Below, piece by piece: positions 4,639-51,675 of a DNA stretch of 64,000 bases. The stretch's first letter is position 1. Every line of letters begins with the position of its first letter. Made by a program: the position numbers and the translations under genes. The DNA lies in the NCBI GenBank assembly GCA_000165425.1, contig CT868053.1:62001-126000 (forward strand), written 5' to 3'. This stretch comes from Paramecium tetraurelia (Eukaryota). Under the pieces are notes generated by a model that saw nothing but the letters and a program-made list of their open reading frames with translations, was not told where the DNA came from and did no database searches.

Positions 4639-6122
4639 ATGATTTCATATGCGTCAAATTAACCAGAGTTCTTGATTTCAAAGTTATAGAACTAAAATGT
4701 AATAGAATAGGAAGTTGACAAATGGGATTATAAAAAAGCGAGACTTGTAAAAACTAAAGTTCAAATCAGAATTACTTCAGAAAATAATCTTATTTACTCA
4801 ACATTAGAAGGTGTCGTTTTGAGAGAGTAAGTGATAATTTATTAAGTTTATAAAGAGAAATTTATTAAGACAATTTTGGGTATTTGGAAGTTTTGAAAAA
4901 TATTGAATAAATTGCACATCTCCAATGGCATGGTGAATATGGGCAGAATTATAGAAAATTAGGTAAATGGGAAGCCACATGGGATGGAGAAACTCTTTAA
5001 AATGTTGGAGGGTACTACTAAGAAGGTTTAAAGGAAGGTTTATGGAAAGAGCCAATTAAGAATTATTGGAGGTATGTATAACTAAGGAATGTAAATATAG
5101 TAAAGCCTAAGTATTTGAAAGTGGAGAATATTTTCACAATAAAAGGTAAGGAAGATGGAATTTTACCTAATAAAACAAAAATATGTATTATTATTGACTA
5201 TTAAAGTAATTAAACTATTGGTGGTGGATCATACAATGAGTAAGCTAAGAAAAACGGTAAATGGACAGAATTACATGAAGGGGTATATGATGATTTATAA
5301 GTCACATGGGATGGCGAATACAAAAATGGTTAAAAAGTGGGTAGTTGGAATATTATGAATGACAATTTAAAGATGTAAACATATTAAAATAAAGGCTTAT
5401 GATAATAAATAATATTTATAGTGGAGGTGGATCGTTTGGAGATGGTGATGGATTTAAGTAGGGAAGTTGGGTTGAATTATGGAATGGATTCACTTGTTTT
5501 AGCTGGGTGACTGAAAATGGAGAGTATCAAAATGGTAAAAAGGTTGGTAGATGGGATATGTGGTATAAGGACTATGATAATAAGCAAAGCTTTAAAATGT
5601 AAAAAAAACCATAAGTTTTATGCTGAAGTGGTGGTGGATTATATGATGAAGGAGGCAATAAATTAGGCAATTGGGTGGAACTATCAGATGGTTTTTCTGA
5701 AGGTTCTTAAGTTACTTACGTCGGTGTATATAAAAGTGGAACAAAAATCGGTCAATGGAATATTTGGTACAAGATGGAGTATGGTGATGAGAAAAAAGAA
5801 AGGCTGTAAAAATTCTATATAAAACTTGCATTTAATAATGAAAACGATTATTTTTTTTAGTGGAGGCGGATCGTATGATGAAGAAGGCAATAAGTTAGGA
5901 AATTGGGTGGAAGTATCAGAAGATTTTTCTGAAGAATCTTAAGTCACTTATGTTGGAGTGTATAACAATGGAAAAAAAGTTGGTAGATGGGATATATGGT
6001 ATCAGGAGGATGATGAAAACATTAAAATGTAAGAAATAAAATACAAAGTTCATTATGTATGTTATAGTGGAGGGGGATAATATACTGATGGGATTAAATT
6101 TGGTAAATGGTTGGAAGAGTCG
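4639..6122 (+). CDS. Paramecium-family Gly/Trp-rich beta-repeat protein (MORN-variant/YwqK-like repeats), 3' end lost in N gap
   Basis: Repeats of GGGxYDExGxKxGxWVExxxxFxxxSQVTYxGxYxNGKKVGxWxI, each encoded by its own exon. Introns at 5185-5206, 5375-5421, 5599-5628, 5806-5860 and 6029-6067. Confidence 0.8.
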
Positions 6123-6272
6123 NNNNNNNNNNNNNNNNNNNNNNNNNNNNNNNNNNNNNNNNNNNNNNNNNNNNNNNNNNNNNNNNNNNNNNNNNNNNNN
6201 NNNNNNNNNNNNNNNNNNNNNNNNNNNNNNNNNNNNNNNNNNNNNNNNNNNNNNNNNNNNNNNNNNNNNNNN
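6123..6272. other. assembly gap (run of N)
   Basis: About 150 N between two convergent multigene-family sequences. Confidence 0.99.
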
Positions 6273-6968
6273 CATATTTTTGTATCAGTACCATCCAGTT
6301 TCTCTGAAAATTCCATCCTTCCATTTAATGTGAATTTTATTCATAATATCTTTTTATATTTTCTAAACTTAGTTCTCTATCATCTAATCGATCTTTTAAC
6401 TAATTATCTGAATAACAAATACCATGTCGTAGTAAAATTTTATAGATTTTTATCTAATTTAGAGATTTAGTTTGATAGATTTGAATTGAGTTTTTGAAGT
6501 GTAAATAATTTTTATTCTTTTATTTTAAGATGAGCAGTTAACTTAACACCTTCTAAAATGTCAACTAAAATATTGATATCATGCCAAGATGTATTGCTCA
6601 ATGCTATGTTATCTGTCAAAAATTTGTAGAAAAATTACTCTTAGGACTCAATTTCTTGATACATTTTTAGTGTTGTTTATCTGATAGTTTAAATGAAGAC
6701 TTTAAATTTCTATTCCAATTCGTTAATCATTATTTAGAATCTAAGCCTTTAAGCTTTTAATTGAGACTGATCACTAATTTATAATTCATAGTAGTCTTGC
6801 TTTTAAACGTTCTTAAAATTTTTATATTGTTAGGGTTTTATCAAATGGAATTTTGTGAGTGTAAAGGCAATCTGAGCATAGCATTCTTTAACATTCATGT
6901 TTGGAAATACAAATAAATGAAATTTGTTTCTGAGTATGATTTTTACAATAGACTGGAATGGAAGCCAT
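6273..6968 (-). pseudogene. frameshifted B-box-like zinc finger + coiled-coil family gene
   Basis: MASIPVYCKNHTQKQISFICISKHECQ/RMLCSDCLYTH needs a frameshift. In-frame TGA near 6786 and a second shift, then a coiled coil (..DINILVDILEG..). Runs into the gap. Confidence 0.65.
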
Positions 6969-9032
6969 TAATTTATCAATACTATTAAATTATTTAGTAA
7001 ATAAAACTTGTGAAAGCTAATTAAAAATAGGAATAAATTCTTAATCTAAGGATAAGATTATATATTCTTGTATACATGTTATAATTAAATGAAATTAGAA
7101 TAGTCTACCTTCAATTATATTATCATTTAACTTTAAACAGAGATATATATATATATGTGCGGATGAATCAATTAGAATCTAATAGTAATAATAAATTTAA
7201 TAAGGAAATTTATGCTCCCTTAATATATCCTATTAAATTAATTTAATTTCTTTGTTGATTAATCATTAATATTGTGATTATCCTCCCAAAAAGTATCAGT
7301 TAAAGTCTAATATTCTCAGAGTTTGAATTACCTTCCTTTTTTGCTTCTAAAAATGATTGATAATTTATTCGTTTTTAATCAGACATCTTGCGAAATCCTA
7401 GCCCTAATAACATTTGATGTAGAATTGTTTAAGATCGTAAGTTCTAGTTATTTAATATAAATTCTTAATAAATATGGAAGAATTTATTACTCAGTATTAT
7501 GGAAGTATGTAATATTCACAAATTTCGAAATTATTTTAACTCATATATGTATTAAATTGTTGTTTTATTTCTATAGAGTGAAAATAATTAGAAATTTTAA
7601 TTAATATTTACTTGAACGATTGCGACATTCAAACTATTTTAGGATAGTTGCACAAATGTAAATATAAATTAAGACCATAATTATTTAGACTTTGCTCAAA
7701 TTAGTGTAAATACAGATTTCATACTTATGAAGATTAATAGTAGAAACAAACATTTTACAATATTAAAAGCAATGAAATAAATATATCTAAAATAACAGAT
7801 ATTCTCAATCATTCCTAGGTTTAATAAGCACAATTTTGTGGGTAAAATTGAGGAAAAAACTAAAGATATTAATTTTGAAATGTATAAGCATATAATTATA
7901 CTTTCAGGAGTATTTTATAATGTTAATATAATGAGGATCAAATTAAATTTTATTTAATTGTTTATCATAATATTCTAATATATATTACTGAAATTTCCTA
8001 ATTTTTAAAGCAGATAGAAATGCCTTAAAGAAACAAAATTATGTTGATATCCAAAATAGTTATATTGCTATTTCAGAACTTTTGGTGTTAATTTTAATAT
8101 ATAGAAATAATTTAAAAAAAAAAGTGTTGTTAATATTTTTATAGAAATATAATTATGATAATCTTAAAAGCATAAGGTTTATTATATACAAGTATTTTTT
8201 TTGATCTTACAGATTGATGTCATTAGAATAATTATTATATTATTCACTTATATCCTAATAATTCTCAACAACATGTGTTAATTGGAATTCAAACTGTTAA
8301 TTTTTTTTATTACGTAATTATATTATAATGATTTTATATTGTCATTTCATAATGATCTTCAAATTCAAAAGAAGTATTCAAGGAACTGCAAATTCTATAA
8401 GAAGTTCTATTAGGCCTTATTTTTTATGCTTCTGGCCCTTGTCATTTACTGGTTTGCTGTTAGTGATGGAAATATGTGCTAGATGATCCGTTTTGCTCTT
8501 TCTTCATTTTCCAATTCACTAGAAATTGTCCTTCATAAAAAGAATTAATCAAAAGACAAAATTATGTGTTTGAATACTAACACAAAACTTTAACAAGTAA
8601 ACTTCTTGTAGTATTTGTAATACTTTGTATAAATTTTTTGGTCTTTGAAGACCATTATTCCTAACTTCCAATCATTTGATTCTGCAACCTAACAAAGGTT
8701 GTTTTTTGCTTGGTGCAACTAAGTTTGTTTAACTAAAAAAATATTAATATTATTTATGCTAAAAAATGGAATATATTCACATAATAAACTAGGAATAAAT
8801 TGGTAATATCTAAGAAGCCATAAAGTAGATGAATTATCATTTAATCATTATTGAATTAGTTAACTTAAAAGGGGTCTTTTAAATACATTTAATGAGGTGT
8901 TTTGTATAAATAGCAATAATTTGAATCTTTATTAATTGAATCATTTTAATATTATTTGAAAAATAATACTTATAGTAATTTATTAGAAATGCGCAGATAT
9001 TAAATTATTTTAATTATCTTAAGATAAATAAT

Positions 9033-11733
9033 TCAACCCTTTCCAGCAAAAGATGTCATGTTTGCGAGTGTGGATTGCAATATTCTCAATTTTCTTTGGC
9101 TTACAGCAATATCAGTTTCTAAAATGCCATGTTTGACCATTTTCTTAGCTTAGTACAATTGCAATTAATTCAAAGTTCTGAATGTTTAGAACTTTTAATT
9201 GACTTCCATATTCATCGATTATAATTGGCACCCCAGATGCTATTTCCAAATTGCAATCATTGGAGTACTATTATCACCTAAGCCTAATTAATCTAGAATT
9301 TTCATCAAAGCTGCTCTCCCCTTTTGCATAGCTTAAAAATAAGGGTTAGTTGAGTCCAATCCAACTTCTTACTTTGCAAAATCTAAGTCACATCTTCTGG
9401 CCATTAGAGCATACATGTAAAGCATGTATTTCATATGGGGATGATTATTATAGTAATAATTTGCTATTTTATTGATTAGTTCTTCTGGAACTCTATCCCA
9501 ATAAGCTAATTCTGGGTGAGTGAAGGAGCATCTATCGCTATTGCAATATGCTTGAACTATGGCTCTCTGATTCTTTATACTTTCAAAAGGCTTAGCAACC
9601 TCTCTGCTTCCTGCAAAATTGAAAGATTCAACCATAGTTTTGACAACTTAATTTTTCACATACAAGTCGTTGTACTCTTTTGTCTTTTACATTGCTCTTT
9701 AAGGAACTCCAATAGCATTATCTACACTATTACCAAAAATTTACCTAATTCAAACAAAAAATCCATGTATTCATAGGAAGGTTCGAAATCATCACTATAA
9801 TTTATATTTGATAAGCCATTTAACAAAAACGTAAAGGCAACATCTTCGCTAGCAAACTCTGAGGTAAAGTAGTGACCTTAGATAGTTCTTATATGCCTTT
9901 TTCGTTGTGCTCTCGTCAAGGCTTAATACTTAGTATGGATCAATGTGTAAGGCCCACCTCCTCTTTCTGGAGTGATACCCTACCCCATATAAATATACTT
10001 CTCTGGATTCCTTTTGTATTCCCTCATATTTCTAAGTTCTGTCAAGATCAAGCCATCTCTTTATCGCGTGTCACTACTGGCAATCATAGTTATTTTAGAA
10101 TCAGTATTGTTTGATGAAGAAAAGGTTTCTAACAATGGCACTATTTCTACATTCTCCACCTTATACTGGTTAATTAATTCATTAACTAAATCATACTATG
10201 ATTAAGTTTGGAAATTGGCAATAATAATCATGTCTGCTGCTTAACCATTGGCATTTAAAAGCGAGAGTTCTTTGAATATATTCTTGATCATTGGTTTGAT
10301 TTTGTTAAGCTAAATAAGAATATATAAGTATTTATACATCTGTCAAATCTTCACCAGCCAGTCTAATTTGTCCCAATACTCCTGTTAGTCTGAAAATAGA
10401 ATAGAGTTTCTTCAACTTTAAAGCAATAAAGTATTCTTTAGAATCATCATTTTTAGCCAAGATGTGATCTAGAATTTAATTAATTTAATCCTCTATCTTT
10501 TTAATATTGAAAATAGGCATTTATTAATAAAATTCTTCAAGTGAAATCTCCTTCTTGACTCTAAATTTTTCACTTAAATCTCTTATGTCCTTGCTATAAT
10601 CCAAAGCTGATTAATATAATTCTAAAATCTTCTTAAAATCTTCATTCTCCTCCAATTTTGCTTCAGCAATATACTCCTTGTACTATTACAATGTCAAATC
10701 AATTGTCAATCCATGTGTATAAGACATAATACCAATTTCCTAATGAATAGAAATGAGAAGTCTACCATTCCAGGATGATTATCAAAATCAAATGTCAACC
10801 AAGTCCCAGGAGTTTCAAAATAATACTCAGGGTTTTACAAACCAAGTTCATAAGCCTGAGCTACAGCCTTAATAAGATTTGGTAAATATTAGGAATGATA
10901 GATTAATGATTCTTCAATGTAAGAGACTTTCTATAATATGTGGTGTTAGAATATTTACATTAAATACTCTTTGTTTGTTGGATTGGATGAATAATTTGGC
11001 AGCATACTTAAGATACTTGTAGTCATTTTATTCGATCCCTTGGAGCATTCTACTTATAGCAATTAACTAGGTCAATGAATTTGGTTGTGTAGGATGAGAA
11101 GTAAACACATACTTCACTCTGTTGACTTTTGACTAAAAATTTATACATAATAATATGTCGGTACTTTGTCTCGTTGATTAAAAAATTCGATAATCCTAAA
11201 CTACTCCAAATACTCATAACGAGCATAATGACTGCTCAGTCTATCAAATATCATTAAGCTATAGATATGCCATAATAATGGTTCTGGAAAGTCCTTGTCC
11301 TCACAACTCAAGTTTTCCATATCCTTCCCTTAATACGTATTATCAAAATAAATGGATAAGGCATCCTGAAAGAGTTAGGCTTCTTCTGAAGTCAGGTTAT
11401 CAACGTATGCATCTAAGAGTTATAGCATAGTCTTTTTCTTTCTAGGGTTAATGTGTCTGAAGTAATTATTTCCCAGGTCCATTAATCGAATTGGAGATTA
11501 TTCTAGTAATGGTTCTTCTTATATGAATTTTTGAATTTCTATAATCGAACATCTTTTATCACTATAGTTTATTGAATTGATGATTACTCTGCATTGGCTG
11601 CTATCCAAAGCATATCATTTTCTCTTAATTACTTTTCTTTCACATTCTCAGACAACAAGTATTTTGGTAAGTATCTTGAGGCTTAGTAAATGCGAGTTGC
11701 ACTTTTAAGGTGGGATGCAATTGATCGTATCAT
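9033..11733 (-). CDS. highly divergent phosphoenolpyruvate carboxylase-like protein with predicted mitochondrial presequence (~845 aa, 6 introns)
   Basis: PEPC motifs occur in the correct order: VFTSHPTQ, GTWLTFDFDNHP, GQIRLAG, IVPLLET, MIASSDTRQRDG, YMGQGITPERGGGP, RTIQG, FAGSREVAK..KNQRAI, and C-terminal ..AGKG*. N-terminus MIRSIASHLKSATRIYQASRYLPKYLLS is Arg/Ser-rich with no acidic residues. Confidence 0.8.
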
Positions 11734-12308
11734 AGTTTGTAAATTAATTATAATTGTTCGAGAATAGTGATAATATATTCTGGTTTTTGGTAATATAAAT
11801 CATAAATTACAGAGCAAGTCTAATTGCATGGTATCTATGGGTTCTTGTAATTTAGGAATTTGACTTATTTGAGTAATGAATTATTACACTGATATTTATT
11901 AATGATTGAAGTAAAAGTAAATTATAATTGAATAATTAATTCAAAATGAAGATGTCCTAGTTGTACGATTTATGCTACCAGACTACAGGCATTACTATTC
12001 TTATAAAATAATAGTTACAAAATAACTGTTATTAATTATTTACAGTTATTTTATTTAATATTATCATTACAATAAGATTTATAAAATTGATTATTATAAT
12101 ATTTCTATTTAAGTTTCATCTTATAACTCAAATATTGTCATCTTTTAAATCATATAATCTTTATATTATGATATTTATTTTATTATTTATTTAATACAAT
12201 TACTACTCATTATAGAATCTATTAGGAGAAACATAAACATTACTAATTAAAATTAAGTAGATAAGTAAGATTCTACCATATGTCTGATATGTTATTTTAT
12301 TATTTTAG

Positions 12309-13261: not shown

Positions 13262-13677
13262 AGTGATTAATATAAGAAATGTATATTCAAATAATGATAA
13301 AATATCTTCACCTTCTTAAAAAGCATTATATTGGATATCTTTAAAAGTTTATATATATTAGGTTATTCTAATTACTTGTTTCTAATTTATAAGTGAAGTT
13401 AAGTGAAAGTGAACGAATAGAATTAGAAGTTGTGGCAGTTAAATTCCATAGAACAGTATTGATTTTCAATATGCCAGATATAGCTCTAAAATTCATTATG
13501 ATTATTTTAAGTAACACTTTCCTAAGAAGAAATAATGCAAAAAAAAGTATTGATCGTTAATTAGTTCATCTACATTGTTGAATATATAATATTAAATTAT
13601 CTAGTTCTACAAATCAATTTAGTTCATTGAATGTCGCCACCTATATATTAAAGCTAGTTAGATAGATTAATCAATGT

Positions 13678-13750
13678 GGGGTAGTAGCTCATTTAGTAGA
13701 GCGCGTGATTTGCATTCACGAGGCGCCGAGAGCGAAGCTCGGCTACTCCA
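13678..13750 (+). tRNA. tRNA-Ala(UGC), copy 1
   Basis: Full cloverleaf: acceptor GGGGTAG/CTACTCC with the G3:U70 Ala identity pair, anticodon arm CGTGA-TTTGCAT-TCACG, T stem CCGAG/CTCGG. Followed by a T-run terminator. Confidence 0.92.
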
Positions 13751-14428
13751 ATTTTTTACTTTTATTTTTATATTCATTAAAATTTATTTTTGTTTTAAAA
13801 TTTTACTATTAATATATTATTTTCTTACTTTAACCTTATATCGAAATTCAAAGTCATTTTTCTGAAAAGATATTGTCAGATAATTTTTAGATAACTAGGG
13901 TACAAGAAAGGTATTAATATCATTATGAACTATTGTTATGCAAATTTATTAATTAGTATATGTCTAATCATTTAACACTTTTAAACATATGATTATATAA
14001 ATTAAAATTGTCAACAGTCTATTTGATCATTATACAATATTAGTATAACTAAATAGAAAAAATTTATTTTTCCAACTTAGCTTCTGTAAAAATTTATAAG
14101 TTATTTAAAACAATTTTTTTTCTCATCATATTCTTACGATCTTAATATTATTTCTTAATGAAGATATAATAAGGGTACATGGAAAAATAAAATTTCATAT
14201 AATTTTTCAACCTGCATATGATCATATAACTTTAAGCAATTTAAAATTAATTTTAAAGAAATTTAACAGAAATTGCACTCACATTATTAATTTAACTACT
14301 ATTATTATTTATTACAGTTGACTAAATGTCTTGAATTTTATCCTCAAGCATTCTAAAGATTAATATCGATAGATTAATTTTAAATTTCAAACTATTCTTA
14401 AAAGATAGTTAGATAGATTAATCAATGT

Positions 14429-14501
14429 GGGGTAGTAGCTCATTTAGTAGAGCGCGTGATTTGCATTCACGAGGCGCCGAGAGCGAAGCTCGGCTACTCC
14501 A
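14429..14501 (+). tRNA. tRNA-Ala(UGC), copy 2
   Basis: Identical 73-nt sequence to copy 1, followed by T-runs. Confidence 0.92.
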
Positions 14502-14865
14502 ATTTTTACTTTTTATTTTTTATTTTTTATTCTTTTAATCGGAAAATGCATCACTAAGATACTTTACTTATACTATCTTAGATATATTAAAAAAAATTGA
14601 TAATAAACAAGTATTATCATATGAAGTCTTCGAATTCTTACTTTCCTATATCTAATTCTTAATCATTTAAGCCAAAATATATAGAAAATAAATAATAATT
14701 TCTTGAAATCTTTACATAACAATTAGTAAAATTTATTAAACTAATATTAGCTTCATATTTATAAGTTCAAATTACATTAAGTAATTTGCTTGAATAATTC
14801 AAAATAAATATTTCAATAAACATATACAAATACAATAGACATCATTAACTTAGCCTCACAGATTC

Positions 14866-16314
14866 TCATTATTATTTTAAATAATCAAACATTAATGCAT
14901 AAAATTAGATGATATCTATTTTTTCTTATGAGAACTATTTGAATGCTTATTTCAGTGGGATCTCCTTTTCCTAAAAAAATGGGAGAATATCATTTAGTTT
15001 TAGATATTATTGTTAATTGGAAAAGTGTTAGAATGCTTTTGTTAAGTTTTTTTTTGTAATAATTGATCTCTTATCAGTAAATCTAACAATTAGTTCAATG
15101 TACTATAATTCTTATTGTGATTTAAAAATCTAATTGACAGCAAATAAAGATTAAGACTAGTTATATAAATGTTTAAATTATTTTCGAACTAAAGTTGCTA
15201 GTTGAAATCGAGTTATTCGTTTTGTATTTTTTAATTAAGCGAGATATTCAAGAGAATTATCACTAAACATTTCTGCCATCATATAAAAAAGTATCTGCTA
15301 AAGTGGAACCATAATAATATTGTTAGATTTTTGTGGTAAATTTAATTAAAAAGAGTTCATCAGCGAAGACTCTAAAATTTCAATCATTGAAATTCTGTTT
15401 TGAGGGTTTACTTCAATCATTTAATTGAATAAGTCTTGGATTTCACAATGAAATGAATCATTTATGAAAGGAATCTAATTTCTTCTTTCTTATAAAACAT
15501 CTTCTTAAAAGTCTCTTAAAGAATTTCCAGTAAAAAGTTAAAAGTTATAAACTAATCGAACTCCAATGATTCCTAAAGACCAAATATCATCCTCATAGGT
15601 TGGTTCGATTATTTAATGGTCAAGGTGTGCTTGTAATAACTAAGGGCTTGAATATCTTAGCTTCAATTAAGGTTTTTTATCAGAAATAAAAGTGGAATGT
15701 AAATCCACCAGTTTTAATTAAAATTTTGAAGATTAATCTACAATCTCAAAGCTTTTTAATGTTAAATTACCATGAACAATATCTTTTGAGTGTAAGTATG
15801 AGACGACATTAAAAATCTATCTTAAAATAACTTATTTTTAATGAATAGTAAGATGCTTTGATTCATTTAATATTAATGATTCCAAGCTTCCTCCATTGCA
15901 ATAATTCTTAATAATTGTATACTATGAGCAATGGCAATATATTTCAACAAATTCCTATAAATTTTCATGAAACAAGTTTGAAAATCTGTTAATATAATTA
16001 TTAGTTTTTTCGTTATGGTCTAAAACTTCGGCGATAAAAATTTATCTGGTCAAAATATGCTAAACAATTATAGAATTTTAATTTTGAATGACTTTATCCA
16101 AATGTCTAATCTAATTATAATATTTTAAATAATTCTCTTCGATCACATTCGTAGGTTGAATCACCTCATCTGCGTAATTAAAGTCTAGTTTATGATCTTT
16201 TCTTTTCGAGAAAATTAACGTGGGGGATGCAGGACCTTCTGAAATTAGATTGTTTTGAAGATTTCCTAGATTAAGGCATTTTAGAGTGGATTTCTTTGAA
16301 GAGCAAGCGCCCAT
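14866..16314 (-). CDS. N-acylated CDPK-like pseudokinase
   Basis: MGACSSKK start. Kinase-fold remnants YCNGGSL, YLHSKDIVHGNLT (HRD->HGN), LKLVDLH (DFG->DLH) and DIWSLGII. No GxGxxG loop. Confidence 0.7.
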
Positions 16315-16444
16315 ATGTTTAAAATAGAACTTAATTAATGTTATAAGATATTAAAAAATAGAAACTTAATATATTGAAATATCACAATTTAGTTGTAACA
16401 TCCTAAAATAATATGTACATATATAGAACTCAATTTGAATGATT

Positions 16445-17518
16445 TCATTTTAATTAATAGTTCCTCGTAAAATAATTATGCCCGCATCCTCTCTATTCTT
16501 TCAATTTTCATCAAAATGAAATGAATAAATTTATTTCTTCGTTTGCTATGCTTTTAATAATAAAAACGACTGATATATTATGTAAAATAATATTACAAAC
16601 CATTTACGAATTAAATGCCAAGCCAAACAAAATATGAAGTTCTTACATTATTTTCAATAATCATTTTGAATGTTCAAGTGGAAGGTGTAAAATGGTTCAG
16701 CATTTTTTGATGTTAAAGTTTAAACAAAGAATAGTGCGAAATTGACACTCCTCTAAACTAATCATTCATTAAGGTTTAAAGTAACCAAGAAGAAATCCAT
16801 TTTGCTGCTTTCTATATTTAGAATTTATTATGTTGGAATAAGTGTAGAAGTTCTTAGAATTTTTTTTGTAAACATACGATAATCATCATTCTCATGAATT
16901 CTAATAATATTATAGATATTTAAATTAGACTAGATAAGAAGATTAATATTGTAATCATTCATTTCTAATTTGAAATGATTTAGTCTTTTAATGTGCTATT
17001 CTTCTAAGTGGTTTTTAAGTCTCAGAGATTTCTTGCTTGTCTTAATTTCCTGTTTCGATATCAATCACAATTAAAGATTTCTTAAACTCCACTTTTTTTC
17101 TTTAAAATTTTGTTACTGGTGCCAATATTTTTGAATCTTATCTTTTTAGGAATAACTTAGTTCGTTTTTAGTGTCTCTCAAATTCAGCAGGAGATGCGTT
17201 TCGCGATTCTTGGACTATGATAGGAATTTCAGGTAAAGATCTCTAAAATCTCTTTGGTCTGGCTGGGACTATTTTAGGTAAACGGAAATGATAAGGAATT
17301 TCGATAAGTGGATCACTCTCACATTGAGTGTATATTTTATTTCCTACATTTCTTTCTGTAACTTCTCCCTCAGTTTTTAAAGAATAAGGAAGAACATCAA
17401 GTTAGTTTAAGAAAAGAGATGGTCTCATCGCTCTTGTAGTTGTTGCCTCTTTTTTTGGTGAAACCTCTTTCGAAGCAATACAAGGAAGATGAAATCTATT
17501 TGAGGTTAGATTAGACAT
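16445..17518 (-). CDS. hypothetical protein
   Basis: MSNLTSNRFHLPCIASKEVSPKK.. with long code-6 frames. Exon boundaries and 3' end are approximate. Confidence 0.45.
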
Positions 17519-17786
17519 AAGGCTTCAATTTTTATTTTAATAAATGATTTTAGAAATTAATTTATTTAAGTATTATATATTCAAACTAATTAAACTGTTG
17601 TTATCTGTAAATTACTTATTATCTAATACTAATATTATTAATAATAAACTCAATTTAATCATATATAAGAAATTAAGGAGTGAGATAATTTTAATTGATA
17701 TTTTCAAATCAGTTCGCAAATTGTTAGAAATAAAAGATTATTAATTTTAAAAGTTTTTAACATTTCTGAATTATTTTAATTATTTT

Positions 17787-20027
17787 ATGAATTGGAATTA
17801 ATTTGAGGCAATTCACTAAGAGGTTATATAAAATCTAGAAAATAATGGATTCGCTACTCCAACACCTGTATAAGTTGAAGTTCTTAATAATTACCAAAAG
17901 CATAAGCATATTATCATAGCATCTTAAACAGGATCAGGAAAAACATTGGCATTTGGAATTCCATTAATTTCTGAGATCTTGAAGAACATGGACAAATATC
18001 CAGCTAAACAAATCATAGCTTTAATCCTTACTCCGACCAGAGAGTTGGCAATGTAAATTTATAAACATTTGAAAGCAATCACAAACTTGTCTATTGGTTG
18101 TTTAGTAGGAGGGATGTCTAAAGAGAAATAAAAAAGAATTATAAATGCAGCTCCAGTGATATTAATCGCAACACCAGGCAGATTGTGGGATTTCATTGAA
18201 AATGAAGAAAATGACAAAATAAAAAACTTGAATCTCATTAAATTTTTAATTATTGACGAGGCTGACAGAATGGTGGAATTGGGTCATTTTCCATAACTCG
18301 ACAATATTATGACCAAAATTACAACTCCATCTTAAATAACTCATGACAAAGATCGAATTCTTTCCATGATGAATGAACAAAGTGAAGCAGCTTATCTGAA
18401 CAATTAAAAAATTACATTTGAAGTTGAAAAACCAGTTGAAATGTCTTATGAAGATTTTATTAAATTATAAAATGGTAAAGGTAAGATTTACATTGATAAT
18501 GATGTAATTTAAAATGACATAGAAGAAATAAATAAAGATGATGAAGTAGAATAAGAAGGATAAGAAGAATAAGAAGTAGAAGAGGAGGAAGAATAAGAGT
18601 AAGAAGATGATGTGGAAGAAGAGGAAGATGAAGAAGAAGGAGAGGAAGGAGAAGAAGAAGATGGTGAAGAAGGAGAAGATGAAGAATAAAATGAAGAAGA
18701 TATTTAAGAAGAAGAAAATGAAGATGAAGATGATGAATAAATTCAGGAGGATGAGGATGAAAATGATGAGGTAGAAGAAAATTAGCAAGGAAAAAGAAAA
18801 GCAAAGAAAGAATAAAAACAGAAATAAAAGAAGAAACCTTAAAATTTTTAATAATAGGAATACACCTTAAAGACCAGAAATGAATTAAGAACATTTTTAG
18901 TCTCTGCCACATTAACTCATTAATTCAAGACTGGGTCAAAATTCTAATTCTTGAAGACTTCAAAAAATGATTAATAAAACTCAGCAGATAAATTATTAAT
19001 GAAACAGATGAAAGCTACTGTTCCTAAATTATAATCACTCTTAGGTAAATTGAAGGTCAAAGAATAACCCTATATAATTGATTTAACATAGTAACTAGTA
19101 TTCCCAGAGAAATTATAATTCTATAAATCATTAATGGAAGAGGATGATAAGCTTTTACACATCTATCATTGGTTTAAAAACAATGAAGATTAAACATTCA
19201 TCATCTTCTTGAATTCAATTACATATGCAAACAAAGTGACATCCATGCTAAAAGTTCTTGGAGTAATAATATTATGTGATTATTTTAGCTTCCAGCTGTT
19301 ACTTTACATTCTTAATAGTAATAAAGATAAAGATTAACTAAATTAGATTAGTTCACAGCCAAAAAGAGCAATATCATGGTTTGCACTGATGTAGCTGCAA
19401 GAGGTCTTGATATTGTGGGTGTTGAAAATGTTATTCATTATCAAGTTCCCTTTACAGCTGATACATTTGTCCATAGATGTGGTAGAACTGCCAGAATCAA
19501 TAGAGAAGGAAAAACCTTAGTTTTAATAGGACCAAAAGATATGGCAAGATTCGCTAAATTGGAGAGTGATTTATTAAGCAGTGGAATTAAATTCGAAGAT
19601 TTCAAATTATCGTTTAATTAAGTGAAAAAGACCAGAGACATGATCAAGTAAGCCTAGAGATTGGAGAAGGAGGATCACTCTTTGAAAAAGAAGAAGAATA
19701 TGAAGGATGCTTTATAGAAGTAATTAAAGAACGATGACTTTGATTTAGATGAAAAAGAATTGAAGTAGGAATTGGAAAATGTATTTAAATTATTAATAAT
19801 TATAGATTGAAGAGGAATTAATTTAGAAGAGGAAGAAGTTGGATCATGAGAAGATGCAATACTAATAAATAGTATCATAGAAGAACAAGTTAGATGGTAG
19901 ATTTGATAGGAGAAGAAATGGATTATTCTTAACTCCTGAAGATACACTGTAATTAGCTGAAAGATTGAAGCATCAGAAAGAGATGCTTCAATAAAAATAA
20001 TAATACTAAAAAAACAAAAAGGGTTGA
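17787..20027 (+). CDS. DDX24: DEAD-box RNA helicase DDX24/Mak5-like
   Basis: Q motif GFATPTPVQ, SQTGSGKT, PTRELA, DEADRMVELGHF (DDX24/Mak5-type), SAT, TDVAARGLDI and HRCGRTAR. TGA 20025-20027. Confidence 0.85.
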
Positions 20028-29649: not shown

Positions 29650-32600
29650 ATGCTATTTATGTAATATTATAATTCTATTGCATCTGATTTGGTAATATAA
29701 AAAGAAATTCATAAAACCACAGTATTACCATTAATATAAGAGGACTAGATTCACAATATTGATGATTTAGAAATCACCTTAAAAATTGAATGTGGTTAAT
29801 ACTTAATTGGATTGGAAAACAATTATCTAAATAAATGTGATCAATATGATTTGATGGTTGAAATCAAATTGAAGAATGGTTTCTGGAAGTGCTACAAGCA
29901 ACCAGAGATAAGATTGAATTAAAGTTTATTTGTAAATAATGATTATAGATATTTTTAATAATGAAAAACAAATGTATTCAAACAGATATCAGTTATTTTA
30001 GATGCAAAACTGATTAAACGTAAACAATTGATCATGATTTCGAATAAGCATCACTATAGTAGAGCTATCCTAGAATGATTTCGATTAAAGAATAATTTTT
30101 GCAATTGCAAGACATTTACCCTTATGATATTCATTTGAATTATGAAAAAGAGGATTCAATATAATTTCAATTACAATTAAAGAGCTTTTTGGATGAGCAA
30201 TCTACATCTTAAATTGTGCTTTTGATCAAAGGTCCTGCATTTTCAATTGATGTATTATTTAATTCAACATTTTTGCAAGATGAGAAATAAGAAATACTAA
30301 ATTTGGTTTCTGAGTGCTCAAATTAGAATCTATTGGAAACAATAATCTAATTAGAAACCAAGTTAACTGAAATGGATAAAGAATTTATAAAAAGAAGAGC
30401 AGTAAACTAATTTAAATTTGTAAACAATTATTAATAAGTGGAATAATACAATGAACTTTAGATTACAAGAGGTATATCAAACGTATTCGGAAGTGTAAGT
30501 GAAGAATTGGACATGAAGTAATCTGTTCTTGGTTTTGACATAATTAAAGATCATCTGGTGGAAAAGTATGACAATACAGAACCTCAATTTAACCCCGTCT
30601 CAACAGCACTTCCAATAGAGCAACTGTCACAATTATAAGCGTGTAGTTTCTCAAGATTTTAATAAGACTTTGATGAGATACAACTTATTGGAAGTGGAGG
30701 CTTTGGCAAAGTGTTCAAGTCTAGAAACAAATTCGATGGGAACTATTATGCTTTAAAGAGAATCGTCTTGGATTACTCGAATAAGAAATTAACCGAAAAA
30801 ACTAAGAATGAAGCCGTTTTATTGTCAAGAATCCAACATCCTAATATAGTGAGATATTATCAAGCATGGACTGAAGAGTACATTAAGGATTAATATGAAA
30901 ACATTGAAGACGACGAAGAATTTGTGGAAGATTCTGAAGAGGAATCTGAGGAGGAAGATCCATAAATGCTGAGGAAGGGAAGCAGTATTAGTTAAGAAGA
31001 GTATTATGAGGATGATACACAATTTGAAGATCAAGAAAACAATGATATGGATTTTCAAATTGAGTGGGTTAATTGTGATCCACAAATTCAAGAGGAGTCC
31101 ATTCAAACTCCAGAAGTCAAAGCTCATGAACCTAAATAGAATAGTAACAAACAATTGCTCTACATTTAAATGGAGTATTGCACAGGGGATACTTTAAAGA
31201 AGAAGATTGATGAACGCAATCTCACTTCAGAACAAAAGAAGAAGATCATTCGACAAATCTTGGATGCATTGTATTATCTACATAAAAACAACATCATTCA
31301 TAGGGATCTGAAACCTCAAAACATCTTTTTGGATGGAGATCTGAATGTCAAGTTGGGTGATTTTGGTCTGGCTACAGAAATGAAGCAGGAAATCAAATTC
31401 ATCGATCACAAATTAATGAGAAACTCCTCTACGGTATAGAACAATCAGAGTTAAAAGTTGAGTTTGACCTCAGGAGTTGGCACCTTCCTATACTTGGCAC
31501 CTGAATAGGAATAGAGCCAATATGATTCCAAGGTCGATATCTACTCTCTAGGTATCATCTTATTCGAGACGTATTATCCCTTCAAAACGGATATGGAAAG
31601 AATCAACTACATCACTCAACTAAGAGAACAATGCAAATTCCCTAAGGACTTCGACCAAAAGGTCGGTATGGCAGATAATGAAATTCGAGAGAAGATAACT
31701 GCTCTAGTGAACAAGGATCCTTAAAAACGCCCTACCACTTAGAGTCTCCTTAATGAATACAAAGACAAAAGAGTTTAATAGGTAATTAGATCTATTGCTA
31801 ATCCTAATTGTCCTGATTTTAATGAGTTAGTTTAAACACTTTTTGAATGTAAACAATTAAAATAATAAAATAATTTCTTTACTTCCTGTCTAGAGGAAGC
31901 CATTAGTTAAAGTCCTACCCTATTTTTTAAAAATTTTCAATCTGGCATCATAGAACTATACACAAGAGTTGAGAAGATATTTAAACTCAGAGGAGCATTT
32001 TAATTGAATCTGAATCCCCTTATTCCGACTCAAAACACTTTGAAATTTTCATCAATCTTTGGTCAAATCGAGGAGTATGAAAACTGTCCTCATCAAAATT
32101 CAAGTTTTAGATACATCACCCAAGAAGGGGAACTCGTGCAATATTGTCAGAATCTGCTGTAGCCAGTGATTTATTGGTTGAAGTTGCTTCCACTTAACAA
32201 TTTAAGAAGATACACTTTAGGAGAAGTCTAGCACTCCGACAGGCTTCAACTCTCGAAACACAACTGCGCATCATATGACATAATTTCAGAACAGGATCCA
32301 GGACCAGTGAAACTTATCGAATTATTAAGTATCTCCCGACATGTGATTAATTAATTTCATAATGTGAATAATTTCGAATTGAAAATCAGTCACACTTAAT
32401 TCTTTGAATTAATTCTATTAGAATTAGATTTCAATTCCCAAACGGTCATAAGAATGTTGAGACATTAAACCATTTTACAGAAGATTGCCAAGCTCAATTC
32501 CATCATTAATCGGAGTCAACAATACCGAGATCTGGAAAAAGAGATTTTTGTGATCTTGAGTGAAGAGTTCAATTTCACTGATGACAAGACGGATAAGTTT

Positions 32601-33638
32601 CTGGGATTCATGAAATTGAAAATACCCTAGATCTACATGAATGAGACTCATCAGCAAATGAAAAACAGTGAAAGTGGTCGGAAAACCTAAGAGCCTAAAC
32701 AAAAGAGAACATTGAGAGAATAGTTAAAGGGTTACTTTACAAAACAAGAGGCAAGATTCTAATAGATCATAAGTGAAATTGAAAAGTTTGAAGAACTCGC
32801 TAAGGAAACCAAGGTCTTGTGTGATTTTAAGATAGTGTACGAAGTATTCTAAATGAATGAGTTATGGTATTATTATTCTGGAATATGTTTTGAGGTAAGA
32901 TATTTAAATAATATGCATTAGTTTGTTGAGATTACGAAAGAGTTAACAAATCTAGGTAAGAATATGCAACTTGAGATTATACATTCAAGATCTGAGCCTG
33001 TTCCTAAAAACAAGTATGTAATGCTAATTGATTAGTTGTTTGAAGAGACATTAGAAGGGTAATATTGATAGTTTTATCATCGGGGGCAATTACAGTCATT
33101 ACATAAATAATAAAGACAATGGGAAACATGCATGTGGGATTCAAATATACATGGATCAATTCTACTATCGAAAATTTGTGAATCATTTGAACAACAATTT
33201 CAGTGGTAGAGTTTAAAAGACATTCGATCTCTTCAATTGGCCTGATTCTTTGATTAATTTTAAGAGTCTGACCCTGAGTGTGTTGATTGTGGTGGAGGAT
33301 TTGTCGATGAAACAAGCTTTGGATTTGGCTGTTCGATTTTGGAATCATGGAATAGCTGTAAATCTATATTGTAATTGTGATAGACGATGATTGTGTACAT
33401 TAAGAGCATCAACAATTCGGCTTGGAGTTATAAGAGGTCTGTGGAGATCAAGTTGAGTCTATCGAAGAAGTTCAATGAGGTGAAGTGCATAATGAAGAAG
33501 TACAGGGAGAAGAAGGAGGAGGAGGTTCCATATCCGGAGATCTTCTAAAAGACCAACAGTTATTTGAGGGAGTATGTGAAGAATGAGAGTGTTGAATATA
33601 AAGTCAGTAAGAGAGCATAATCCAAATAAAAGTAGTGA
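29650..33638 (+). CDS. GCN2: GCN2-like eIF2-alpha kinase (RWD-like N-terminus, kinase with acidic insert, degenerate HisRS-like domain)
   Basis: [78 protein letters not shown]. HisRS-like YYSGICFE and [15 protein letters not shown] follow. The start at 29650 is tentative. Confidence 0.8.
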
Positions 33639-39401: not shown

Positions 39402-41443
39402 TCACATTCTTAATTTCAAAAACATTCTCTTGAACATTCTTGCTTCATAAGATACTGTATGCTTCTCATCCATCTATTCCAGAGGATTGATCACCTAAAT
39501 ATTAATTATTGGAATTACAGAAGGTATGGCCTTTGCCAAAGGAATCTGCTGCATCCAAGGAAATCCAGCATTTCACGTGTAAGAGGTATCTTTTAATATG
39601 ATCATATGTTTTGCCAAGACTTCAATAAGTGCAAGAAAACATCGCTTTGCGTAATACCAGGTGTCTGTGTTAATCTAATTGGAATATTTCAATAGACTAC
39701 TTTTTTATTATAAGGTTCCAATGACTTGATTACTCTAGACACTCCAAACTCATAATTGTTTTTTGAACAATACAGTGTTCCAATAACTAAATTGACGATG
39801 CAAAGATGATAAACAGATTTTTCAGGCTCCTAGTATTGTGATTTTTATTCCTCAGCCTCTAATTTTCGCATCAATTCTTCAGCATCCTCATTTTAATTAA
39901 CCATAATGTAACTGACACATAAATTAGCAATAACAATAGCAGTTAATGATAGTAAATTATCATTATTTTTCTTAACAATTGGTTCATAATATCTAATAGC
40001 CTCTCTATATTTATTATCTTAAACAAAAAACACATGAGCGACATTCAATTTCCAAACCTCGTGATCAGCACAAAACTCTGCTGACTATCGAAATAGCTTT
40101 TCAACTTGTTAATAATTATCCTTATCCCAATAGATTTTGGCTTAAGCCATCAACACAGGAATGTATTTCTCAAGACATTCATCAAACTCCTTCAATGATT
40201 TCTTGATACCCTCATTGTCTCTATTTAGTCTAGCATCTTAAATAGATTTTGTAATTCTCCTTAGAGTGTCAATGTGCTTATTAGCTAATAATTAGAATTT
40301 CCTGAATGATTCCTCTGGACTACTGGCTGTTAAGATTAGAGCATCGACAAATTCAAAATCGTCTTGACTGATGGTGTTAAATGTGAGATCAGCATTCTCT
40401 GCTAAGATGTCTGCAGCCATATCAAAATATCCGTATTTGCAATACAATAGTAATAAGTTTGAAAAGGTCTCAGGTGGAAATGGAGGATTCTATAATAAAT
40501 GGTTCAACTTTTTGAATCCTTCAGCTGTTTTCTCTTCAATATTCATCAAAGCTTGATTCATCAAAGAGACTGGATCTAATTCATCTTCTTCTCTTGGAGG
40601 CATATCGATTAGAGCTTCTTTGGCAGCTGCATAGTTTTTAATTGAATATTCAATAGCAGCCTTCAAATTAAAGGCTTCGATAAGGGCTGACTCCTTCAAT
40701 GCTTATGAATTTCCAACACTTTTGACTTCAATTCCTTCCGCATTTGATCCAACACCCAATTGAGGATGCTCTCTAACTCCCCTTTCAATAATTTCTGCAA
40801 TGAATTTCAATGACTATGCCAATTACTTTTATTTATAATAGCAAAGTGCAATGTTGTATGACAATTCACATGAATAGCCTGTCAGATTCATTGCATCTTG
40901 AAATCTTTGTCTAGCCTCTTCAAATTTGTTCTCTTTGTACAGAATGCAAGCCTCGTTGATTATTGAATCAGGGTCATCCATGTCATTTTATTTGAGTAAG
41001 GTTTTGGCATGCTGGAACTCATTCTTCTCGTATCGAATCAAGGCTTGGAGCTACAAGATTTTACCCTAATATTGAGGGTTTTCAACAGAAGCACAAGTTT
41101 TGAGTGCCTCGTCATATAAACCTATATTTGAAAATAGCATTATAGATTACTATCTTTGTAATACGCTTAGGCCAAATAGATTTTGTAGTCATCAATTTCT
41201 GGATAATACTTGACTAATTGTTCATAACTAGATGAGATAGTATGATATATACATTGCCACAGCTTGGGAGAAATCTTGATTCATATAATGACAATATGCC
41301 AAGAGGGAAAGAGCTCTGCTTTTCGGACAAAATTGTAATTCGTAGTTCAAATAATTGATGGCATCTTTATATTTCTAGTCCTTAATTAAAGTATAAATGG
41401 TTCTTGTGCGTTATCCTTCTGCAATAGGTTGGACCGGTTGCAT
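39402..41443 (-). CDS. IFT70: intraflagellar transport protein IFT70/TTC30 (TPR)
   Basis: TIYTLIKD, EAFNLKAAIEY, DMPPREEDELDPVSLMNQAL, PFPPETFSNLLLLYCKY, HLCIVNLVIGTLYC and WYYAKRC. Apparent 3x1-nt insertions lie near the 3' end. Confidence 0.92.
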
Positions 41444-46388: not shown

Positions 46389-48392
46389 TCATCTTTTAGC
46401 CAAAATTAATTAATGTTTTTAATAAAACTCATTTAACTGTACACAAAAGAATTAATAAGAGAATGAATCTTCATCTACCCTAGAGACACCCATAGCGAAA
46501 TCCATAATATTATTGATCTCCTATATTGATAATTCTGTTAGATCTCGCAGTATTTCAAACAATAATTCCTTGCTTATATTGCCACACTTTATTTTATCGA
46601 AATCTTTCAGTACCAAACAAAGTTGATACACTGCTTTTTCCGATTTCTCATATTCATTCTCTCCTGTTATTTTGAATTGTTAAATTAGATGATACTTCAA
46701 CTTCTCCAATACTTCTCTGTCATCCAGAGGCTTAATCTGGAAGGCTTTATCAGGATCCCTTACAAACTATCCATCCTTATAATTGAAGGTGGGTTCGAGT
46801 TCTTTAAAACTCGGCCCTGGCTTGTCATAAGGGACCAATTGTGGAGCAGGCAACTTGATTTCATCGTTGAACCTGGCTCTAAGTTTCTCAATTAATTCAG
46901 GAAAATAAATCATTCTTAGAGGTTACTGATATGAAGGTTCCTTATTATGCTCTAGAGATTGAATAATCATAGTCACACTAGCTTGATCTACCAATAGCAG
47001 ATCCTCGTTAATGATTTTCCTCAATTAGACTTCATCAATCAATTGATCTGCTTGCATCATCTTCTAAGCCTTGTCCTCATACCTTAATAAAATGGATAAC
47101 ATAATTGATTTGAAAAGAGTTTGGTAAGCCTTCTCCAAATCAGTTAATTCTGTTTAGTCATGCTTCTCAAAGTTTTCTTGAACCAAAGTTTGCAAGAACT
47201 CCTAAACCTTTAATAACAATTACTATTGCTTGGAAAGTGTAAACAACCCATGATTAGCTAAGTAATATCTGAATTCATTAAAATCTAGTTAAGTGTATCC
47301 GATTTCTAAGGATCGAATTACTATCTTCAAATTTTCTAGGGTGCACAACCCATCACTTTAGAAAGGCTTGAATGCTTAAGCAAGCATATTTGTGGTATAT
47401 TTGCTTGCCATTTCTTGAAATTCCTTTAAGATCTTGGGTAATTGCATTATTTCAAGATGAGGTTGTTTTGCATCATACATTTTGATGATTTCCTTGAAAT
47501 ACAGTGGTCTACACTCCATGATAAAGTGAACAAATGTCAGAAGATTGAATTCTCCAAAATTGTTTCTCTTCCAAATCAAGTAATACAACAGACAGGATTC
47601 ATCATAAGTCATTTCTACATTGTACAATTTGACTTTTATCAGTTATATGAATTGGTCTTTCATAAGAAACGGAAACATTTTTTAATTTCTTCTGATGCCC
47701 AAGAAATCAAATAGAGCCATTTCGATTTTCTCAGGAGCTATAAATTAGAAGGCCAATTAAGGTAAGGCTTGAACTGATATCTTTTTGGCAATTAAAATTT
47801 GGAAATTCTCCAAAATGATATTATTATTGTGTCTGGAGAAGTTAGCCATCTTCTCTTGAACAACGTCATCGAACATTATATTAACTGCATTTGAACTCAA
47901 CAATTCTAAATCCAATAAATTCAAATTAAAATGTTTGAAATCATAGATGGCTTTACGATCAAAGTAATTTGAGACTTCCTCTTCAAAATGCTTCTGAATT
48001 TCTTCCAAGAATAATTTATTTGAAGCTGAATTCTACTTCTATCTAATAATTGCATTCTTGAACACATGGAATGAATTCTTTGGTGCTTCACACTCCGTTA
48101 AATACTTGTACAATTCCCTATAATCGATATTCCTATTGGAACTATAAGGAGCTTCTTTCAATATGCTTGCAATATCAAACTCTGTAAAATAGAATTAACT
48201 TTTTGAAACTTCAACCAACACATCTCTCAATACCTTCTCTTGAATAGTACCATCTTTGAATTGATCATATCGAAAACATAATTCTATGAAATCAAACTTA
48301 CAATAGTAGATGTACTCCCTCAGCACCTGCATGCCCTCGCTTAGAAATTCGGGGTGATGCAGCTTGTAATACTTATCCAAGTTATCAGTCAT
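46389..48392 (-). CDS. hypothetical EF-hand-containing protein
   Basis: Long code-6 frame. EF-hand-like YDQFKDGTIQE and LKDFDKIKCGNISKELLFEIL..VDEDSFS. Confidence 0.65.
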
Positions 48393-48413
48393 TTTTATTT
48401 TATTTAATATTTA

Positions 48414-49901: not shown

Positions 49902-49911
49902 ATTAATTTTT

Positions 49912-51653: not shown

Positions 51654-51675
51654 TAAAATTCAATAACTATATAAC

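Follow-up and report, generated by a model that had tools for sequence, protein, structure and literature searches.

A spliced and expressed gene for a PEPC-like protein

We analyzed a 64,000-nucleotide stretch of Paramecium tetraurelia DNA (assembly GCA_000165425.1, contig CT868053.1, positions 62,001 to 126,000 of the forward strand), referred to here as the window, and focus on a minus-strand gene at 9033..11733 whose product resembles phosphoenolpyruvate carboxylase (PEPC). Read under code 6, as ciliate nuclear DNA with a G+C content of 21 to 34%, the gene comprises seven exons with 845 codons plus TGA (Table 1). Its six introns all have the form GTA...TAG and measure 23 to 32 nt. Because TAA and TAG are reassigned to glutamine (32 and 6 in-frame sense codons, respectively, with TGA present only as the terminal stop), a standard-code track of open reading frames misses the gene. 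No second PEPC-like copy was found within the 64-kb window.

The gene is real and expressed. Transcript contigs from two runs (X4, 2595 nt; X7, 2554 nt) lack precisely the six introns, which confirms the intact spliced frame of about 845 amino acids (aa) in the original prediction, a note made from the sequence alone. Oligo-dT RNA sequencing placed 863 (X20) and 877 (X21) reads over 9001-11727, with the first mate on the plus strand in almost all of them, as a minus-strand mRNA predicts. RNA and window differ at a single site, position 10283 in exon 6, with a synonymous C>T present in four of four runs. Since no further ATG occurs in the 16-nt 5' leader, the predicted N terminus is the real one.

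The product is identical at 845/845 residues to P0257, a P. tetraurelia protein deposited as CAK67653.1, XP_001435050.1, UniProt A0CA36, and GSPATT00036432001. A0CA36 bears the UniRef name “Phosphoenolpyruvate carboxylase,” as do the P. tetraurelia copies A0CEM0 (94.1% identical) and A0BC60/Q6BGM2 (about 84.5%). CAK67653.1 also appears as the row “PEPC / Paramecium tetraurelia / Ciliates” in Chi et al. 2014 (PMC4196954, Table S2), whose text describes ciliate PEPCs as being without the usual tetrapeptide at the C terminus and not assignable to known types, with a ciliate clade branching after the archaeal PEPCs. This is the same protein as ours; that paper contains no residue analysis, localization, link to short bacterial forms, or biochemistry. 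In Peng et al. 2012 (PMC3521007), a Tetrahymena protein is listed among Pfam PEPcase members. The family assignment is therefore already known (UniProt, the 2014 paper), and novelty had been overstated, because UniRef already calls the identical protein PEPC and the published ciliate clade includes it; mitochondrial PEPC, too, is known in diatoms. What remains new is modest: an uncharacterized enzyme, its link to unannotated short bacterial forms, and degenerate paralogues.

Table 1. Coordinates of the PEPC-like gene in the window, with the positions of its motifs
Feature	Position	Strand	Remarks
Coding region	9033..11733	-	ATG 11733-11731 to TGA 9035-9033; 845 aa; product is P0257
Transcribed region	8992..11749	-	X4 transcript contig; 5' leader about 16 nt, 3' untranslated region about 41 nt
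Exon 1	11588..11733	-	Codons 1 to about 25 (11733-11659) encode MIRSIASHLKSATRIYQASRYLPKY, acid-free, basic, and S/T-rich; putative mitochondrial presequence
Intron 1	11562..11587	-	26 nt, GTA..TAG; absent from contigs X4 and X7
Exon 2	11165..11561	-	N-terminal helical region; conserved within ciliates
Intron 2	11133..11164	-	32 nt, GTA..TAG; 12 + 13 spliced raw reads plus X4 and X7 contigs
Exon 3	10959..11132	-	VFTSHPTQ 11085-11108; His194 codon 11094-11096 corresponds to E. coli His138, catalytic
Intron 3	10931..10958	-	28 nt; spliced out in transcripts
Exon 4	10766..10930	-	WLTFDFDNHP 10772-10801 corresponds to E. coli WMGGDRDGNP; W248, D252, D254, and P257 kept; R253 replaced by Phe
Intron 4	10740..10765	-	26 nt; spliced out in transcripts
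Exon 5	10338..10739	-	GQIRLAG 10353-10373; Arg420 corresponds to E. coli Arg396
Intron 5	10310..10337	-	28 nt; spliced out in transcripts
Exon 6	9745..10309	-	Catalytic core; IVPLLET 10124-10144 (Glu489 corresponds to E506)
Exon 6, SD motif	10052-10078	-	SSDTRQRDG; Asp508 corresponds to D543, Gln511 to K546, Arg512 to D547
Exon 6, Gly-rich loop	9950-9991	-	YMGQGITPERGGGP; Met536 corresponds to H579, Gln538 to R581, Arg544 to R587
Exon 6, TxQG motif	9875-9889	-	RTIQG
Intron 6	9722..9744	-	23 nt; spliced out in transcripts
Exon 7	9033..9721	-	GSRE 9600-9611 (Arg656 corresponds to R699); QRAIVQ 9552-9569 (Arg669 corresponds to R713)
Exon 7, C-terminal end	9036-9050	-	FAGKG in place of canonical (R/K/Q)NTG; stop 9033-9035

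Homology to PEPC

The likeness to PEPC goes far beyond what chance would give and, judged by profile comparison, the protein is a member of the PEPC superfamily. The cleanest test leaves out intermediate (second-tier) proteins and sets A1, a profile built from 34 proteins of the ciliate family, against one of 13 PEPCs positive for the Pfam PEPcase family PF00311 (A7, made up of the E. coli sequence, three from enterobacteria, four from Bacteroidota, and five divergent ones from the order to which Rickettsiaceae belong); hhalign gave 99.0% probability and an E value of 5.2e-18 over 631 columns and query residues 153-811. The motifs are collinear with those of PEPC over 498 to 631 hhalign columns. 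Against E. coli PEPC alone or the enterobacterial PEPCs, a set too alike for a useful profile, A1 reached a probability of 6 to 7%, though in the right register. Used as a hidden Markov model (HMM), A1 scored the Pfam-positive proteins L017, L014, and L019 at 26.9, 21.0, and 17.4 bits, compared with 4.8 bits for the best of 500 shuffled decoys. The original prediction had called the protein a highly divergent PEPC homologue and proposed HMMER- and HHpred-type searches as a check; library HMMs miss PEPC, the profile-profile match is significant, and the catalytic residues are kept, so that the description stands.

A search of 1.84 billion representative proteins with A1 returned 88 matches, including full-length proteins of 587 to 739 aa that make up a second tier. 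Among 14 second-tier proteins and fragments scanned, three gave weak PF00311 matches, and only P0107 (22.9 bits) reached the 22.4-bit cut-off. The ciliate-only profile A1 found no chain in the PDB. When 11 ciliate proteins were combined with 13 from the second tier, the resulting profile found 12 distinct bacterial/plant-type PEPC sequences there (3.4e-19 to 9.2e-14), archaeal-type 3ODM at E 0.0041, and the first non-PEPC chain at 0.025. A protein-atlas feature search listed PEPcase clusters as its best three, with tallies of 19 and 11 covering all 30 matches; the best score was 0.92 (196/256 features shared) and, with PEPcase families removed, only 0.84.

In length and architecture, as far as sequence comparison reaches, the protein is of the bacterial/plant type (EC 4.1.1.31, PF00311; structures 1FIY/1JQN from E. 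coli, 3ZGE from Flaveria, 5FDN from Arabidopsis, and 1JQO from maize), not the archaeal type. At 845 aa it is about as long as E. coli Ppc (883 aa), with which type it has in common the TxHPT His, W..D.D, R396, PLxE, SD, Arg587, TxQG, GSR, and RAI; unlike that type, it carries H579M, R581Q, K546Q, D547R, R253F, K620E, P716V, and W717Q, and it falls under every curated threshold. Archaeal-type PEPC (PF14010/TIGR02751; C. perfringens 3ODM) is a distant superfamily relative, matched 10 to 15 orders of magnitude more weakly than the bacterial/plant-type structures. PF14010 (E<=10) matched none of the exons and family proteins scanned, TIGR02751 did not match P0257, and a PF14010 search of 151 Bacteroidota genomes cross-matched only bacterial-type PEPCs. 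Going by the motif that the original prediction gives for it (IGxGSxPFRG), the archaeal-type Gly-rich loop would likewise lack H579/R581 equivalents; the GxGxxxxRGG form of this lid loop is not specifically archaeal, because it is present in divergent bacterial PF00311 proteins as well as in the short bacterial forms described below. The archaeal-type subunit is given as about 55 to 60 kDa in PMC8100219, versus 845 aa here. The earlier idea of mixed bacterial/archaeal motifs is thus not supported in the form proposed, with structure matches of 3e-19 to 9e-14 on the bacterial/plant side, 0.004 on the archaeal side, and none to PEPcase_2.

Motifs and active-site residues

Residue numbers refer to the window protein, which aligns without gaps with P0001; ciliate residue counts come from 14 ciliate rows in a 39-row alignment and family counts from a 34-row alignment. 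All 11 motifs quoted in the original prediction are present in the order given there: VFTSHPTQ (residue 190), WLTFDFDNHP (283), GQIRLAG (417), IVPLLET (484), SSDTRQRDG (506), YMGQGI (535), MGQGITPERG (536), ERGGGP (543), RTIQG (569), QRAI (668), and RAIVQ (669). Residue alignment also agrees with it that the catalytic His, the metal-binding Glu and Asp, and the Arg residues are kept and that K546, H579, and R581 are replaced, as is the RAIPW tail (Table 2).

Table 2. Positions of E. coli PEPC and their equivalents in the window protein
E. coli residue	Window protein	Outcome
His138	His194	kept
Trp248/Asp252/Asp254/Pro257	Trp283/Asp287/Asp289/Pro292	kept
Arg396	Arg420	kept
Leu504/Glu506	Leu487/Glu489	kept
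Met538/Ser542/Asp543	Met503/Ser507/Asp508	kept
Arg587	Arg544	kept
Thr611/Gln613/Gly614	Thr570/Gln572/Gly573	kept
Ser698/Arg699	Ser655/Arg656	kept
Arg713/Ala714/Ile715	Arg669/Ala670/Ile671	kept
Arg253	Phe	replaced
Lys546	Gln (Gln511)	replaced
Asp547	Arg (Arg512)	replaced
Ala545	Arg (Arg510)	replaced
His579	Met (Met536)	replaced
Arg581	Gln (Gln538)	replaced
Lys620	Glu	replaced
Pro716/Trp717	Val/Gln	replaced
Lys773	Arg	replaced
Arg832	variable	not conserved

The kept residues are almost exactly the set invariant across the 13 PEPCs of A7, R396, R699, and R713 among them. Equivalents of H138, R587, T611, Q613, and G614 occur in all 14 ciliate rows and those of R396, E506, D543, R699, R713, W248, L504, and M538 in 11 to 13, with every exception falling in three degenerate rows. 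Across the family, the His194 position is His in 33/34 rows and the Arg544 position Arg in 34/34. Two basic residues, Arg510 (13/14 rows) and Arg512 (12/14), are newly conserved next to the metal-binding Asp. The segment between the R396 and E506 equivalents measures 68 residues (109 in E. coli). Where (R/K)NTG or QNTG would close a canonical enzyme, the window protein ends in FAGKG, and GKG recurs in 14/14 ciliate rows. The allosteric positions have not been retained, with K620 replaced by Glu and K773 by Arg in 14/14 rows, R832 variable, and N881 unaligned. Classical allosteric (feedback) control is thus predicted to be absent: the enzyme is probably not classically feedback-regulated because the canonical aspartate/malate-site residues are missing. 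Flaveria equivalents of that site are named in PMC3586729.

Short bacterial relatives and phylogeny

Short PEPC-like proteins of 573 to 739 aa are encoded in metagenome-assembled genomes (MAGs) of Rickettsiaceae (L003-L007), in genomes of the same order (L009-L012), and in Caballeronia, where WP_250479991.1 is annotated as “hypothetical protein.” In the search of 1.84 billion proteins, A1 matched such forms at 1e-18 to 1e-4. One of them, P0087, is encoded on a 206-kb contig from a Rickettsiaceae MAG and occurs in two further MAGs. Of 201 sampled genomes of the order containing Rickettsiaceae, 15 matched, five with full-length short forms in frames of 580 to 685 aa. No Pfam family was found in the four proteins L009-L012, and metagenome short forms gave weak PF00311 matches in only a few cases. 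Seven further matches that were scanned (L013-L019; 557 to 1074 aa) are PF00311-positive at only 60 to 194 bits and, by their sequences, link the short forms to canonical PEPC; six of them were checked at the His579 and Arg581 positions, and in these both are replaced.

Motif variants are common to the short forms and the ciliate proteins, and the R396-E506 segment measures 65 to 70 residues in most short forms. Unlike the ciliate proteins, they place the His motif within the first ~14 to 91 residues, so that most or all of the ciliate N-terminal region of ~190 residues is missing, and they lack the conserved C-terminal GKG. No conserved gene neighborhood was found around them. A P0087/P0094 subgroup has a signal-peptide-like N terminus. 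At L003:6001-7990 the short-form gene is broken by stops into three frames. L005 carries the label of a Psychroserpens MAG, but its contig shares 85% identity with the Rickettsiaceae gene, and the label may be a binning error.

Two trees were built, both without other eukaryotic PEPCs and without archaeal-type PEPCs: a quick one (LG+C20 PMSF, 39 rows) and a careful one (LG+G4, 38 rows), from which pepc_P0167, cil_P0001, cil_P0015, and t3_L017 were dropped and to which three Bacteroidota PEPCs were added. Many branches are long, and ciliates and Rickettsiales are both AT-rich. In both trees the ciliates form one clade (100/99) with P0047 as sister (100/99); P0047 and P0261 make up its closest outgroup. 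Ciliates and sister are nested in a larger clade that includes the short bacterial forms (100/99), and the divergent Pfam-positive proteins branch between this larger clade and canonical PEPCs. The ciliate clade is separated from canonical PEPCs in both, as expected of the distinct lineage proposed in the original prediction.

The N-terminal extension

The first 25 residues of the window protein include no acidic, five basic, and five Ser/Thr residues, and no hydrophobic signal-like segment was found in its N terminus. This bias extends across the family: over the first 25 positions of the 31/34 rows with an extension, 12 of 775 residues are acidic where 99 were expected (P 6.5e-31), and 153 are basic where 97 were expected. 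The extension before the first conserved block ranges from 30 to 234 aa. Among seven Paramecium copies of equal length, the first 25 residues are 56 to 88% identical, compared with 93.7 to 98.4% for the rest. An acid-poor, basic, fast-evolving N terminus fits and suggests mitochondrial import, and the window protein is possibly mitochondrial.

Diatom PEPC2 offers a comparison. It has a predicted mitochondrial presequence (PMC2173943) and was detected in a mitochondrial proteome fraction (PMC6683858). Both it and the ciliate protein are eukaryotic and PEPC-like, but diatom PEPC2 is an ordinary bacterial-like enzyme, about 40% identical to bacterial PEPCs (PMC2173943), whereas the ciliate protein is undetectable by BLASTP.

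Predicted function and alternative explanations

On balance we favor, with moderate confidence, a full-length and very divergent bacterial/plant-type PEPC that would catalyze the ordinary reaction, lack classical feedback, and, as its N terminus suggests, be imported into mitochondria. PMC11832675 reports that E. coli His138, His579, and Arg587 are important for catalysis, and a three-step PEPC mechanism is described in PMC8100219. Transferred to the window protein, Glu489 and Asp508 would hold Mg2+ or Mn2+, and Arg420, Arg656, and Arg669 would bind phosphoenolpyruvate (PEP). Phosphate would pass from PEP to bicarbonate, and the enolate would be carboxylated in a pocket of Trp283, Leu487, and Met503, yielding oxaloacetate and Pi, with His194 and the lid-loop Arg544 presumably working as their E. 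coli counterparts do. Following import by way of the N-terminal extension, the enzyme would top up oxaloacetate in the mitochondrion.

The family itself bears on activity. Twelve catalytic and pocket sites (His194, Trp283, Asp287, Asp289, Arg420, Leu487, Glu489, Met503, Asp508, Arg544, Arg656, and Arg669) are all kept in 25/34 rows, every Paramecium row included. In the other nine (P0028, P0029, and P0031-P0037), 5 to 10 of the 12 are replaced while the GQGxxxERGGG loop and RTxQG are retained, and these nine look like catalytically dead paralogues. Because degenerate paralogues do shed the same residues, strict retention of the sites argues for catalysis, and the window protein is probably an active PEPC. 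The intact/degenerate pairs P0008/P0033 and P0015/P0031 list equal longest contigs (6211 and 13822 bp, respectively) and may be tandem neighbors.

A number of observations weigh against the reading of an active, mitochondrial, bacterial/plant-type PEPC. At the level of the family, PF00311 (gathering cut-off 22.4 bits) and PF14010 gave no match at E<=10 for six exons of the window gene or for nine full-length family proteins (Paramecium proteins 92.7% and 84.5% identical among them), and P0257 had no match at E<=1 in NCBIfam, NF000584 (the ppc equivalog, >=815 bits) included. BLASTP against E. coli Ppc reached a best E value of 0.24, and phmmer against PDB sequences found no PEPC. At the active site, the K546 position is Gln in 11/14 ciliate rows with Arg at the neighboring position, and in the Gly-rich lid loop Arg587 is kept (Arg544) while R581 has become Gln and H579, one of the three residues reported as important in E. 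coli, Met. The spacer between the metal-binding Glu and Asp is as short as had been predicted, although at 18 residues rather than ~17, and has this length in 14/14 ciliate rows versus 36 in E. coli. Because the replacements of His579, Arg581, and Lys546 sit on the bicarbonate side, the second half-reaction could differ. The residue roles used here are, moreover, assumed ones: from E. coli and maize structure work we take R396, R699, and R713 to be substrate-binding, W248/L504/M538 to form the hydrophobic pocket around the carboxylated carbon, K546 to belong functionally to the GYSDSxK motif, and K620, K773, R832, and N881 to make up the aspartate/malate allosteric site. An amphipathic helix is not significant in the N terminus (a moment at least as large arises in 203 of 1000 shuffles), and the N-terminal bias could reflect a regulatory extension and not a presequence. 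Literature searches in main texts found no enzyme assay, structure, or localization for any family member.

Of the alternatives, the one that survives best concerns location. An active PEPC might reside in the cytosol, its N-terminal extension being a regulatory or disordered tail like the plant N-terminal phosphorylation domain. The nonsignificant hydrophobic moment fits such a tail, as do extensions of 30 to 234 aa, long for presequences, and main texts of the literature yielded no proteomic or imaging evidence. Lys/Asn/Ser-rich low-complexity tails are, in addition, common in AT-rich genomes. The eight-fold depletion of acidic residues over the first 25 positions of 31 members, in a sequence that is itself unconserved, is however the classic presequence pattern, and with diatom PEPC2 there is a precedent for a PEPC in mitochondria; we regard a cytosolic enzyme as possible, if somewhat doubtful.

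Alternatively, the fold and the PEP/metal site may serve an altered chemistry (hydrolysis, another acceptor, or a different enol-phosphate), so that the protein would be no true carboxylase. The replacements H579M, R581Q, and K546Q cluster in the Gly-rich loop and the tail of the SD motif, new arginines (Arg510 and Arg512) stand beside the metal-binding Asp, and the loop between Glu and Asp is halved; the short bacterial forms carry the same replacements, and those of H579 and R581 recur in divergent PF00311 proteins, all of them uncharacterized. The W248/L504/M538 pocket is nonetheless kept, and none of the 14 ciliate rows has lost the His138 or Arg587 equivalent. H579 and R581, moreover, are likewise replaced in the six divergent PF00311-positive proteins examined and are thus not universal requirements. 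We consider an altered reaction unlikely.

That the protein is a pseudoenzyme or regulatory subunit without catalysis of its own, an option that the original prediction had left standing, is highly improbable here. Several near-invariant canonical residues are indeed replaced, and 9/34 family rows are degenerate. Yet the window protein and 24 others keep 12/12 sites across roughly 45 to 55% identity, the contrast with the degenerate paralogues, which lose 5 to 10, argues for selection for catalysis, P. tetraurelia has retained three or more paralogues, and transcripts of the gene are present. Chance likeness of motifs without true homology, which could appeal to the failed Pfam, NCBIfam, BLASTP (E 0.24), and phmmer searches and to the mere 7% probability that the ciliate-only profile reached with only enterobacterial PEPC as its target, is already refuted by A1 versus A7 (E 5.2e-18), by the collinearity of every motif over 498 to 631 columns, by PDB PEPC matches down to 3.4e-19, and by HMM scores above those of shuffled sequences, and has a negligible claim.

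A more far-reaching scenario, which we rate as improbable taken as a whole, would extend the preferred reading of a divergent, active PEPC: the ciliate clade would be shared with the Rickettsiales-type short proteins by gene exchange, the enzyme would be mitochondrial and allosterically unregulated with a rebuilt bicarbonate-side loop, and in some ciliates it would form a hetero-oligomer with a dead paralogue, as in plant class-2 PEPC.

The importance of these results is modest overall. A whole PEPC lineage, found across the ciliates, escapes the curated domain libraries (Pfam, NCBIfam) and is recovered only by profile-profile methods, so that reconstructions of ciliate metabolism could wrongly omit an anaplerotic CO2-fixing step. 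Should mitochondrial location and freedom from aspartate/malate control both hold, ciliates would carry out anaplerosis from PEP to oxaloacetate inside the organelle by an unregulated enzyme. Small new leads come from the link to the unannotated short forms in Rickettsiaceae and in other bacteria, and from the ciliate paralogues that have degenerated.

Surroundings in the window

The neighboring genes are ordinary, and none is functionally linked to PEPC. Frames at 14866-16500 (-), 17493-19625 (+), 29943-33068 (+), 39689-41188 (-), 43388-44719 (-), 51660-53120 (-), 55463-57007 (-), and 58619-59995 (+) were noted; neighbor products are four protein kinases, a DEAD-box helicase, a TPR protein, a Patched/sterol-sensing-domain protein, and an NGP1-type GTPase. 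The helicase contains an acidic AAGAAG repeat tract (18535-18730). Two adjacent long frames, 48207-49901 (+) and 49888-51387 (+), match no Pfam family and contain alike stretches (e.g., DWQQRAYRRLTK and DWRKRGYRGLTK); they are likely tandem paralogues for a protein of unknown kind. A run of 150 N at 6123-6272, an assembly gap or masked sequence, lies within the long open frame 5511-6497 (+). Two tRNA-Ala(TGC) genes, at 13677-13751 and 14428-14502 (+), stand 751 bp apart and score 51.9 bits each against Rfam.

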